Origin: a virus
Taxonomy: Duplodnaviria > Heunggongvirae > Uroviricota > Caudoviricetes
DNA length: 64,000 bases
IMG/VR virus record: IMGVR_UViG_3300037466_002980
Coordinates: 160,001 to 224,000 of that record
Direction: 5' to 3' (one strand)
Positions within the stretch are counted from its first letter, which is position 1. Each line of letters opens with the position of its first letter. The position numbers and the translations under genes were made by a program. The notes below the pieces were generated by a model, which was not told where the DNA came from, did not search any database, and saw nothing but the letters and a program-made list of their open reading frames with translations. Below are positions 2 through 9,966 of this stretch, in pieces.

Positions 2-445
2 GAATTATCAGCATTAATGTCCCAAGCGGCACATGAAACTTTAGATTTTACCAGAATGATCGAACATGGTTCTAAATCATATTTCCAGAAATATGAAACT
101 CCAAAAATGGCTAAAGTCTTGGGAAACACAGATAAGAAAGGTAACGTTATTCACGGTGCTGGTGAAAAATTTAAGGGTAGAAGTTTTCTTCAAATCACCG
201 GAAAATATAATTACGAGTTGATCGGTAAAGAACTAGGTATTCCGTTGGGAGAACATCCAGAAATGCTCGAAGATCCGAAAATCGGAGCAATGGCATCAAT
301 TTGGTATTGGAAGCATAGAGTAGCACCGAAAATTAATAATTTCGGCGATATAAGAAAAGTAACATATCAGATTAATCCTGGTTTGGCAGGTCTTGCTTCT
401 AGAGAGAAAAAATTTCAAGCATATAATAATTCAAGAGACTTATAA
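2..445 (+). CDS. GH19 chitinase/endolysin-like protein, 5'-truncated
   Basis: Frame open from window start (ELSALMSQAAHET); HET, KGRSFLQITGKYNY and INPG motifs of GH19 enzymes. Confidence 0.8.
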   Translation, partial: ELSALMSQAAHETLDFTRMIEHGSKSYFQKYETPKMAKVLGNTDKKGNVIHGAGEKFKGRSFLQITGKYNYELIGKELGIPLGEHPEMLEDPKIGAMASIWYWKHRVAPKINNFGDIRKVTYQINPGLAGLASREKKFQAYNNSRDL

Positions 446-469
446 AAATAGGACCCGAAGGTCCTATTT
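445..469. terminator. Intrinsic terminator hairpin between convergent GH19 gene and tmRNA coding piece
   Basis: ATAGGACC-CGAA-GGTCCTAT with A/T runs on both sides. Confidence 0.75.
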
Positions 470-638
470 GGTTATTGAGTAATAAGGTTACCAACCCCAC
501 TTCACTTCATCACTGTTTAAGCAGCGAGAGCGAAGACAGCGTCATTTGCTGCGTTTATAGTTTTGCTTGATTTACGATCATCGCCTATCGTGTTGTCCAT
601 TCCCTTACTATTGACCCTGTCGAAACCTTGACTGGCCC
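446..638 (-). ncRNA. ssrA: Two-piece (permuted) tmRNA, coding piece; tag (A)AANDAVFALAA at 552-517
   Basis: Starts GGGCCAG-TCAAGGTTTCGAC; resume context TAAAC|GCA; tag ends LAA-stop; 3' end approximate. Confidence 0.9.
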
Positions 639-639
639 A

Positions 640-837
640 TCATAAGAAAATTTGATCACCTTGTTTATCACAAAGCATTGTGTAAAAATCCCCAGGTCCG
701 CCTACATATTTAAACATCCACATGCCCTGATTTGCTTCTCGTTCGGTACGAACTAAGATAATCTTTTCAGTAAACTTAGCACCTTGCAATACAGGTAATA
801 TGTCTCCGGTCTGGGTTTTTACATAAATCTTCATCAA
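640..837 (-). CDS. 65-aa hypothetical protein inside the tmRNA intervening segment
   Basis: SD-like TAAGGAAG directly after the tmRNA CCA; ORF fills the 208-nt spacer. Confidence 0.65.
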   Translation of the reverse strand: MMKIYVKTQTGDILPVLQGAKFTEKIILVRTEREANQGMWMFKYVGGPGDFYTMLCDKQGDQIFL

Positions 838-846
838 ACTTCCTTA

Positions 847-910
847 TGGTGGACCAGGCGGGAGTCGAACCCGCGTCCAGAACCCGTTTCTGTTCACTTC
901 ATACAACAAT
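847..910 (-). ncRNA. ssrA: Two-piece tmRNA, acceptor piece
   Basis: GAC-GCGGG-TTCGACT-CCCGC-CTGGTCC-ACCA; CTGGTCC pairs with GGGCCAG giving G3:U70. Confidence 0.9.
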
Positions 911-917
911 AATTTTT

Positions 918-946
918 ATTATATATTACTTACCATAATAAATCAA
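918..946 (-). promoter_or_regulatory. sigma70-type promoter for tmRNA
   Basis: TTGATT-17 nt-TATAAT. Confidence 0.7.
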
Positions 947-1598
947 AATTACCACGCATCACCTTTTCAACACTAGATGATTTTCCGCTGTTATGATCTT
1001 TAACCATATCATCTTGAAAACGATAGGTTCTTATTTTATCACCTCGCATACCAGATCCAACCTGTTCTTTTCTTATTGCGGTAAGCTCCTTAACTTTTTC
1101 ATATCTATCTTCTAATATTAATCTTTCGATTAATGAACTTTTAGCATCGTCGAGGCTATTTGTTCTAGATCTACTTTGAGAAACTGAAACCTTGCCAGTC
1201 GGTATATGAGTAATACGACAGGAATTTTGATGTTTGTTTCTATGTTGTCCGCCGGCACCAGTTCCACTAAACCATTCAATCTTAAAATCCTCATCTTTAA
1301 TTTCAAGACATTGAATTTCTGGATCAATTACAGCCACGGTAACAGTACTGGTATGAACTCGACCTTTTCGTTCGGTTGGTGGAATGCGCTGAATTCTATG
1401 TCCTCCGCATTCATTATTAAGCATAATTAAATCATTACCACGAACTTCAATAAAAATTTCTCCGGGTACCTGTTTAATTATACGATTAATTCAGCCAACT
1501 CTATCAAAATGTTTTTGATATGCTCTAGCCAGGTCGGCTGCGAATAATTTGCTATCCTCACCACCTTCGGCCGCACGAATTTCAATAATTCTCTTCAT
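930..1598 (-). CDS. Class I peptide release factor-like protein lacking domain 1, interrupted by in-frame TGA at 1493-1491
   Basis: SD AGGAG then MKRIIEIRAAEGGEDSKLFAADL...DRVG*INRII continuing in frame into HRIQRIPPTERKGRVHTS, GAGGQH and IRTY motifs. Confidence 0.85.
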
Positions 1599-9064: not shown

Positions 9065-9966
9065 GGACTGAGATTACATCCTTACTGATCGGTACCTCGT
9101 ATATTATTTCAATATCTTGCGGGATATTGATTCTTACGATATCCACTAGGTCTGTTTTCACAGTATCCTAGTCTACCGACAACATCGCCTTTTAAAGTCA
9201 GGCAGTAGACTTGACATGATATTCTACTCTATAATTTCCATTCCGTCTGCCTTGCGAGCAGTTCATTGGTGCTAACCAATTACGAAACATCTATTATAAA
9301 TCAACTTGGCCTTGCGAGCTTTCGTCGAACTTAGTTACCTTACGGTCTAAGTATTAGATGTCTTTCAAATATCACCGAGGCAGTCTTTGCATTTTAATAC
9401 ACGGTTGGAATCGAACCAACTGCTTTCTGTTAGGATACAGACACTCTACCAAATGAGTTACATTGCAACCTACTATGATGTGCTACCTCAGCTGCTATAT
9501 ACCTTGTTAGATACACAATACAGCACACCACGTATCTTTCATCTCGCGGATTACTCGATTGTCTTTCACGATATATGTCAAGAGTCTCGGCGTTTTCGCG
9601 TATCTTGCCATTTACCATTCAAACTGCATTCAAGCCCTTACTTGCGAGGTTCGGACAAGAACACTACCCTTTCTCATACCAATTAACAAATTGGTTTATT
9701 GTGAGGTCAGCACCACCTGTTACTCTCCGCCAACTAACGTTCCCTTTCGGCGTTTAAGTTGGCGTTCTTTCCACAACATTTGCTTTATTGTTACTTCGTC
9801 CGGTCTTATCAGACAAAGCTCCCTCACGGGAGTGAGCAGGCCTGCTTAATGATCCATTACTGGCGGTAGTATGTAGGCTTCCTACCTTTTTCACTCCTTG
9901 CGGAGATCCTTCTTCAATAACCAGCTGGGCGAACCATACTGGTTATTAGGGGTTCAAGCTCCCCGA
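9065..9966 (-). ncRNA. GOLLD-like giant RNA with embedded degenerate tRNA (~9388-9468)
   Basis: ~900 nt, GC-elevated, no credible ORF, many GNRA hairpins (GCAA, GTAA, GAAA, GTGA), 3' GTAATCTCAG, tRNA-cluster location; family call from memory of the consensus. Confidence 0.7.

Follow-up and report, generated by a model that had tools for sequence, protein, structure and literature searches.

The window analysed here comprises 64,000 nucleotides (nt) of a freshwater phage. It covers bases 160001-224000 of IMG/VR virus record IMGVR_UViG_3300037466_002980, which is 362,810 bp long and carries direct terminal repeats. Near its left end, on the minus strand, lies a circularly permuted ssrA gene, encoding a transfer-messenger RNA (tmRNA) in two pieces. 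The intervening segment (IVS, or spacer) between these pieces holds an open reading frame (ORF) for a protein of 64 amino acids (aa), P0001, and comparison of its copies identifies this ORF as a genuine gene under purifying selection. Alignment of the loci supports a nested layout that is conserved in about 25 related cases. The locus is rather likely a phage-borne two-piece ssrA of the betaproteobacterial type, of which the precursor transcript would serve both as a messenger and as the precursor of a stable RNA. Its features are the following.

918-946, minus strand: sigma-70-like promoter of the tmRNA precursor (-35 box TTGATT at 946-941, 17-nt gap, -10 box TATAAT at 923-918; 10 of 12 matches)
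847-909, minus strand: acceptor piece, with a 5′ strand pairing with the coding piece, T-arm GGACGCGGGTTCGACTCCCGCC, 3′ acceptor strand CTGGTCC and ACCA (Rfam alignment with structure)
639-846, minus strand: IVS of 208 nt, outside the mature two-piece tmRNA (sequence and Rfam)
833-846, minus strand: 5′ strand of the IVS closing stem, TAAGGAAGTTTGAT, holding the Shine–Dalgarno (SD) sequence AAGGAAG and the first bases of the start codon
640-834, minus strand: nested gene P0001, ATG at 834-832 and TGA at 642-640, for a predicted small beta-barrel protein of 64 aa (substitution pattern and fold prediction, given below)
643-656, minus strand: 3′ strand of the IVS closing stem, ATCAAATTTTCTTA, also encoding the last residues ..DQIFL
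639-642, minus strand: family-wide TGAT motif just 5′ of the first base (G1) of the coding piece; TGA is the stop of the ORF and T639 the -1 position of the presumed RNase P site
470-638, minus strand: coding piece, with 5′ acceptor strand GGGCCAG (638-632), a hairpin with the motif TAGGCGATGA..AATCAAGCAAAA, the tag frame and a 3′ region
517-552, minus strand: tag reading frame AANDAVFALAA and TAA (ARAGORN, Rfam and translation)
441-469, minus strand: intrinsic terminator, a 10-bp stem with UUCG loop followed by UUUUUAU (predicted free energy -13.9 kcal/mol, z -4.13)

The permuted tmRNA gene and the gene nested in it

ARAGORN reports a permuted tmRNA at 426-939 on the minus strand, with the tag AANDAVFALAA*. 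The Rfam model RF04321 (tmRNA_permuted) matches 908-517 on the same strand over its full length (model positions 1-213) with 122.1 bits, the gathering threshold being 47, and the E-value of 2.4e-23 places the call beyond chance. Both tools had been named as checks in the initial annotation, which had proposed a two-piece permuted tmRNA, and both agree with it. Every element it had listed was found in its place on the minus strand: the promoter (TTGATT-17-TATAAT, 946-918), the end of the acceptor piece at 847, the 208-nt spacer, the coding piece starting with GGGCCAG at 638, the tag AANDAVFALAA and the terminator, a UUCG hairpin with a U-run at about 469-441. The latter was not picked up by a consensus scan of the window, yet it is plain in the sequence.

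The gene is ordered as acceptor piece, IVS and coding piece. At its 3′ end the acceptor piece reads ...CTGGTCCACCA, with the CCA at 849-847, and the coding piece runs from G1 at 638. The two pieces share an acceptor stem of 7 bp (GGGCCAG x CTGGTCC) that includes the G3:U pair, and the T-arm reads GGACGCGGG-TTCGACT-CCCGCC, as befits a tRNA-Ala-like domain. The tag frame opens with an Ala resume codon and closes with the hydrophobic ..ALAA and a stop. The promoter overlaps the end of the release-factor gene that lies upstream, and in related loci similar -35 and -10 boxes precede the acceptor piece by 5-8 nt. As this is the only evident promoter, co-transcription of the ORF with the tmRNA is supported by the arrangement of the locus. 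No intron family reaches the Rfam gathering threshold in the window.

A word-indexed search returned six homologues of P0001, all of 64 aa and 72-94% identical, on ten contigs, each of which has an RF04321 match spanning the ORF. Further members were obtained with an exhaustive profile search, a second indexed search and two collection scans. The embedded loci are L003-L019, L021, L149-L153, L169 and L170. All members with at least 58% identity and a readable context sit in the IVS of a permuted tmRNA, inside the RF04321 match, and two divergent lineages, P0008 (70 aa) and P0010 (with the true start at its Met23), are also located in an IVS. The neighbours of the embedded loci vary, and include a release factor, tRNA arrays and a PD-(D/E)XK nuclease. 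Across loci the acceptor stem covaries (A6:U, U6:A, G6:C, GGGGGTG/CACCTCC), with compensatory changes in the T-stem as well. Some acceptor pieces have unusual T-loops, namely GGCGGTA in L014/L015, GGCAGTG in L016 and GGCAGTT in L017 instead of the TTCGAAT type, and still pass RF04321. Very long tags are predicted for L018/L019 and L014: ARAGORN gives 27 aa for L018 (ANANTKGEVAINGRGVKIAARRAAVLA), and the tag of L014, read from the sequence, has about 26 aa and ends in ANDEAFALAA.

The ORF nearly fills the spacer, as had been observed initially, with 64 codons and a stop. The SD sequence AAGGAAG (845-839) sits 2-8 nt past the CCA, and a single T (639) separates the stop from G1. Eleven ORF copies were compared. 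They show no indels, their variable sites number 18, 16 and 38 at the first, second and third codon positions, and the ratio of nonsynonymous to synonymous substitution rates (dN/dS, by the Nei-Gojobori method, NG86) ranges from 0.07 to 0.35. Four of the copies (L005-L008) differ by 3-9 nt, all synonymous, and encode an identical protein. The lack of indels, the low dN/dS and these synonymous differences point to purifying selection on the ORF. The comparison among related phages that had been suggested as a check thus comes out in favor of a conserved gene.

The window ORF and that of L003 share a reading frame with the tag, and no stop other than the UGA intervenes (517-834 of the window, minus strand). 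A read-through fusion of ORF and tag was considered as a conserved feature and rejected, as ORF and tag are separated by one to three stops in most relatives; judging from these sequences, the in-frame arrangement is probably incidental. In public gene calls, an 87-aa ORF is placed across the tmRNA promoter and acceptor piece in L003 (2644-2907) and L004 (979-1242). This call is probably spurious and due to an unannotated RNA gene.

The betaproteobacterial two-piece tmRNA model, RF01850, has no match in the window at its gathering threshold of 84 bits. The tmRNA of L003, whose pieces are 100% identical to those of the window in the parts compared, scores 55.5 bits with this model. Relatives with the nested gene score above the threshold, i.e., L169 with 144.9, L153 with 123 and L170 with 108.9 bits. 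Because several of these relatives pass RF01850, the phage lineage derives from the betaproteobacterial type; by these scores, the tmRNA lineage of the window is of this type and the present copy a divergent one. This lineage hints at a Burkholderiales-like host. A search for close relatives in INPHARED matched the T-arm alone, in tmRNAs of Stenotrophomonas and Xanthomonas phages. The 362,810-bp genome has no match to SmpB (PF01668) at E<=1, and the two-piece tmRNA would therefore need SmpB from the host.

Closing stem and contents of the spacer

In the window, the acceptor stem continues into a closing stem of 14-16 bp, in which CA-UAAGGAAGUUUGAU pairs with AUCAAAUUUUCUUAUG. The predicted minimum free energy of the precursor core is -76.4 kcal/mol, compared to -49.2 +/- 4.7 kcal/mol for shuffled sequences (z -5.78), and in this structure the SD and the start codon pair with the end of the ORF. 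The 5′ strand of the IVS pairs with the last codons of the ORF in all embedded copies, over 10-15 bp and with compensatory changes, leaving TGAT unpaired. Among 76 unique IVSs, with 51 distinct 10-mers at their 5′ ends, the closing stem has a mean of 9.3 consecutive bp against 4.4 in controls with ends mismatched between loci, and the last five bases are ATGAT, TTGAT or CTGAT in 66.

Both the stem and the YTGAT motif are additionally found in phage IVSs of 29 nt that are non-coding and in the chromosomal ssrA genes of Advenella and Pelistega, of which the IVS (30-114 nt) contains no ORF. Since they occur in these non-coding spacers and in bacterial ssrA, the junction features are not adaptations of the ORF. 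The initial annotation had pointed to an SD directly after the CCA and a stop 1 nt before G1; both are present, but they are features of the precursor in the whole family rather than something special to the ORF. In the light of this comparison, the ORF has borrowed its SD region and its stop codon from a pre-existing structure.

A search with the coding-piece motif retrieved at least 119 IMG/VR stretches, of which 80 loci were examined. A homologue of P0001 is present in none of these 80. The CCA and G1 could be placed in 72, and seven placements with aberrant spacers or spacers of more than 300 nt were set aside. IVS lengths among the placed loci range from 29 to 284 nt. An ORF that starts 7-14 nt past the CCA, at the position of the window ORF, fills 18 of the 26 unique IVSs of at least 86 nt; with the interior of the spacers shuffled, this count has a mean of 2.4 and a maximum of 7 in 500 shuffles. 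The SD-like sequence AAGGA is confined to ORF-bearing IVSs, and the TGA of TGAT is the stop for most of the cargo ORFs.

The cargo consists of hydrophobic peptides of 23-26 aa (conserved, five loci), peptides of 29-36 aa, ORFs of 52 and 56 aa with GTG starts and a Cys-rich one of 86 aa. In L054, L066, L074, L076 and L091 (IVS of 86-89 nt) the conserved hydrophobic peptide has 23-24 aa, begins with MNDDL... and ends in an aliphatic run, and its start, SD and TGA-T-G1 geometry are the same as those of the window gene. In L043, L058, L060, L073 and L086, the spacer ORF has no in-frame stop before G1 and runs 13-66 nt into the coding piece; cleavage by RNase P would leave these ORFs as non-stop messages. 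Taken from the sequences of these loci, the spacer is an exchangeable slot, either empty or holding one of many unrelated small genes. The neutral insertion site that had been offered initially as an alternative describes such a slot correctly as to its exchangeable cargo, but the cargo is under purifying selection and the site is thus not neutral.

The similarities of ORF and tmRNA backbone disagree between loci. L013 and L014 are 94% identical in the ORF and 58% in the acceptor piece, whereas the acceptor pieces of L005 and L018 are 92% identical and their ORFs 67%. This disagreement implies that spacer content has been exchanged between tmRNA backbones. The protein family is moreover not restricted to spacers. 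The distant members P0009, P0011, P0018 and P0019 and those of 16 metagenome loci are free-standing genes with ordinary SDs, closely packed among other small phage ORFs and away from any tmRNA. The embedded P0008 group carries a 7-residue insertion common to the free-standing clade and is sister to that clade (support 93/94). A test of a single origin of the embedded or free-standing label required three changes on a poorly resolved tree, the well-supported branches of which are compatible with one origin.

Expression of the nested gene and role of its product

Under the preferred reading, that of one precursor acting as messenger and as source of a stable RNA, a single promoter and a single terminator bracket acceptor piece, spacer and coding piece. 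The spacer is a hairpin, of which the closing stem stacks directly on the acceptor stem and the upper part is filled by the 64-codon gene. This gene reuses the precursor: the 5′ strand of the stem supplies its SD and start, the 3′ strand its last five codons and TGAT its stop. Ribosomes would bind the nascent transcript while the 3′ strand of the closing stem has yet to be made. The SD and AUG are predicted to be unpaired with a probability of approximately 0.5 in nascent RNAs, falling to 0.08 when the 3′ strand has been made. With the SD and AUG buried in the folded precursor, translation is therefore most likely co-transcriptional. After termination at the UGA, closing stem and acceptor stem would form and initiation would be shut off. 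RNase P would then cut at G1, where the U at -1 fits the known preference of this enzyme, the 3′ end would be trimmed to the CCA and the spacer would be discarded. Protein output would in this way be tied to transcription of the tmRNA.

Some points weigh against this account. We infer translation, the RNA ends and the two-piece state from sequence, and occlusion of the SD is a thermodynamic prediction only. The phage has no SmpB and the gene adjoins the release-factor gene and tRNAs, so that a role in trans-translation could be envisaged, and small beta-barrels often bind RNA. Apart from the position of the P0008 group, the protein tree is poorly resolved, so that genes may have moved between spacers and free-standing sites in either direction and any number of times.

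As to the product, AlphaFold2 with 21 sequences predicts a small beta-barrel of five strands with one short helix, at a mean predicted local distance difference test (pLDDT) of 93.1 and a predicted template-modelling score (pTM) of 0.78. An earlier run with 7 sequences had given a poor model (pLDDT 58.8). P0001 has no Pfam match at E<=1, including SmpB (PF01668) and Phage_T4_Y07B (PF27001), and no PHROG match. Foldseek against the PDB gives no match at E<=0.001, the best being YgdR with E 0.29, and resemblance to Hfq is weak (template-modelling (TM) score ~0.44, E above 1). The wide fold search with VIA returns weak matches, the best to a chromodomain (Z 4.0), followed by Tudor, SH3 and ribosomal-protein folds at Z 3-3.8, and an ESM-Atlas feature search gives sub-threshold beta-trefoil-like rows (score 0.84). 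Based on these models, a fold of the SH3/Tudor/Sm-like class is plausible, at the level of the class and not of any single family. The nearest model in the ESM Atlas is T4 Y07B (PF27001), with a TM score of 0.62 by query and a root-mean-square deviation of 2.0 over 53 residues. There is no sequence-level match with this family, which has no known function, and the resemblance is a lead only. The protein is probably a small accessory or host-directed factor rather than a dedicated tmRNA cofactor.

It is conceivable that the 64-aa protein is instead a partner in trans-translation, i.e., a chaperone of the two-piece tmRNA, a replacement for SmpB or a factor inhibiting host SmpB/tmRNA, which is placed in the spacer for synchrony with the tmRNA. 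In about 25 loci the gene is obligatorily co-expressed with the tmRNA, SmpB is missing from the phage genome, a release-factor gene and tRNAs are neighbours, and the modelled SH3/Sm/Tudor-class fold with its weak likeness to Hfq would suit such a role. A functional coupling of the protein to trans-translation is possible. However, in most tmRNAs of this family the spacer is either empty or taken up by unrelated cargo, chiefly short hydrophobic peptides, and members of the protein family also stand free of any tmRNA. The family is mostly acidic, with an isoelectric point of 4.6-5.7 in 15 of 21 members, whereas SmpB and Hfq are basic RNA binders. Moreover, neither Pfam nor Foldseek nor VIA matches the protein to SmpB in sequence or fold. 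Variation in cargo, spacers that are empty, homologues that stand free and an acidic product all argue against a dedicated role in trans-translation, which we regard as unlikely.

Slightly less probable again is the mechanism put forward in the initial annotation, in which RNase P and 3′ trimming free the spacer as a mini-mRNA that is translated only after processing, thereby coupling the protein to tmRNA production. The ORF indeed fits exactly between the processing sites, with its SD 2 nt past the CCA and its stop 1 nt before G1. As the junction motifs occur without an ORF, this fit is inherited and did not arise to make a mini-mRNA. Once the spacer is excised, its SD and AUG are predicted to be locked in a stem of 14-16 bp with the 3′ end of the ORF. 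The freed RNA would also have a 3′ untranslated region of 1 nt and no protecting structure beyond the closing stem. In the one analogue that has been studied, the excised IVS of the Coxiella 23S rRNA is rapidly degraded and its ORF apparently untranslated in vivo (PMC4990558). Co-transcription and the nested layout are thus retained from that proposal, but the excised spacer would be a poor template, because the closing stem would persist with SD and start codon paired with the end of the ORF.

The ORF could alternatively be a selfish or hitch-hiking cassette that recombines through the conserved junctions, with little or no benefit to the phage. The incongruent similarities of ORF and tmRNA backbone, the invariant junction sequences flanking the cassette and the patchy and varied cargo are in line with this idea. 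Against it stand the strong purifying selection on the protein, the free-standing paralogues that are kept in ordinary gene arrays, and the small size of the product (64 aa), in which Pfam and PHROG scans find no nuclease or recombinase domain; such a cassette is improbable. That the ORF is untranslated and its conservation an RNA-level constraint on the spacer hairpin is very improbable: the spacer is highly structured (z -5.78) with ends constrained by the closing stem, but substitutions cluster at third codon positions, the protein is the same in four copies that differ by 3-9 nt, the 11 copies have no indels, free-standing homologues carry ordinary SDs and the family alignment yields a confident predicted fold.

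Within the preferred reading of a shared messenger and tmRNA precursor, a further step would be that translation and maturation of the same molecule are mechanistically coupled. Owing to the closing stem, each precursor would be a one-shot messenger, open to translation only during its own synthesis. Termination at the UGA adjoining G1 would time acceptor-stem formation and the RNase P cut, and the non-stop sister ORFs would go to trans-translation. This extension is speculative and, on balance, we doubt it. If true, cleavage of the stop-less sister ORFs would make a non-stop mRNA, with its product handed to trans-translation, and the spacer would be a regulated expression device that phages load with many small effectors.

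Related systems and neighbouring genes

The ssrA genes of Advenella and Pelistega, which are of the betaproteobacterial two-piece type (RF01850, with RF04321 as general model), have the same order of acceptor piece, IVS and coding piece, the G3:U pair and an encoded CCA. They likewise share a tag of the ANDxxFALAA/ANDESYALAA type, the coding-piece motif, the closing stem of the IVS and YTGAT before G1. Their IVS of 30-114 nt has neither SD nor ORF, in contrast to the 208-nt IVS of the window with its selected protein gene. Among bacterial genomes (L172-L194), the ssrA genes of Advenella and Pelistega (Alcaligenaceae) have the exact 27-nt coding-piece motif of the phage family. One match to this motif lies in a contig of a 'Crocinitomicaceae' metagenome-assembled genome, with a phage-type acceptor stem, and may be a misbinned phage contig.

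Two-piece tmRNAs are known in phages: of 133 unique phage tmRNAs surveyed, 53 have this form, and almost all of those come from aquatic phages (PMC9004378). The OM43 phage Melnitz and pelagimyophages also have a permuted ssrA behind an early-type promoter and lack SmpB, but their tmRNAs are of the alphaproteobacterial type with a glutamine riboswitch in the 3′ domain, unlike that of the window; the intervening segment is not discussed there (PMC9004378). In a survey of 97,179 tmRNA sequences, a tRNA-Ala gene and a repeat element were described in a permuted IVS, as well as homing-endonuclease genes in group I introns of the T-loop, without mention of a protein-coding IVS (PMC11915505). These cases likewise have extra content inside a tmRNA gene that is removed in maturation. 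In comparison with the tmRNAs bearing homing endonucleases, the window has no intron, and its cargo is a small non-nuclease protein gene with no Pfam or PHROG match.

The nearest described analogue is the IVS of the Coxiella burnetii 23S rRNA with its S23p ORF, which similarly is an ORF in a stem-closed segment cut from a stable-RNA precursor (PMC4990558). That segment is excised by RNase III and its ORF is decaying and apparently untranslated in vivo, whereas the window ORF is selected and has an SD and free-standing homologues. No published description of a protein gene in a tmRNA IVS was found in a literature search of limited reach, older tmRNA work lying outside it.

In SgrS/SgrT, RNAIII/hld and mixed tRNA-mRNA operons, one transcript gives a functional RNA and a protein. 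Compared to these dual-function RNAs, the coding part is here the discarded segment between the halves of one RNA, with translation signals in the processing stem. The IVS of permuted tmRNAs has so far been treated as discarded filler; in the window it holds a selected gene that has its ribosome-binding site and stop in the processing stem. These findings bring in a further class of nested small gene, one that is often overlooked or mislabelled in annotation, and provide a natural system in which translation and the folding and processing of a stable RNA compete on one molecule. They also suggest that phages hold a reservoir of small effectors driven by apparently strong tmRNA promoters of the sigma-70 type.

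Directly upstream of the tmRNA promoter lies the release-factor gene (930-1598, minus strand), in which codon 36 is an in-frame TGA. If this TGA is read through, the product has 222 aa, without domain 1 and with the PPT and GGQ motifs. The split (35 aa and 164 aa) is kept in L003 and L004, and elsewhere in the window TGA ends ordinary long frames (8 of 40). The release factor and the tmRNA form a large translation module with 27 tRNA genes, which lie between 2873 and 18877 and are all encoded on the minus strand. At 9065-9531, also on the minus strand, a GOLLD RNA is present (RF02032, 198.9 bits against a threshold of 150), which contains a tRNA-like element (RF00005 at 9401-9463).

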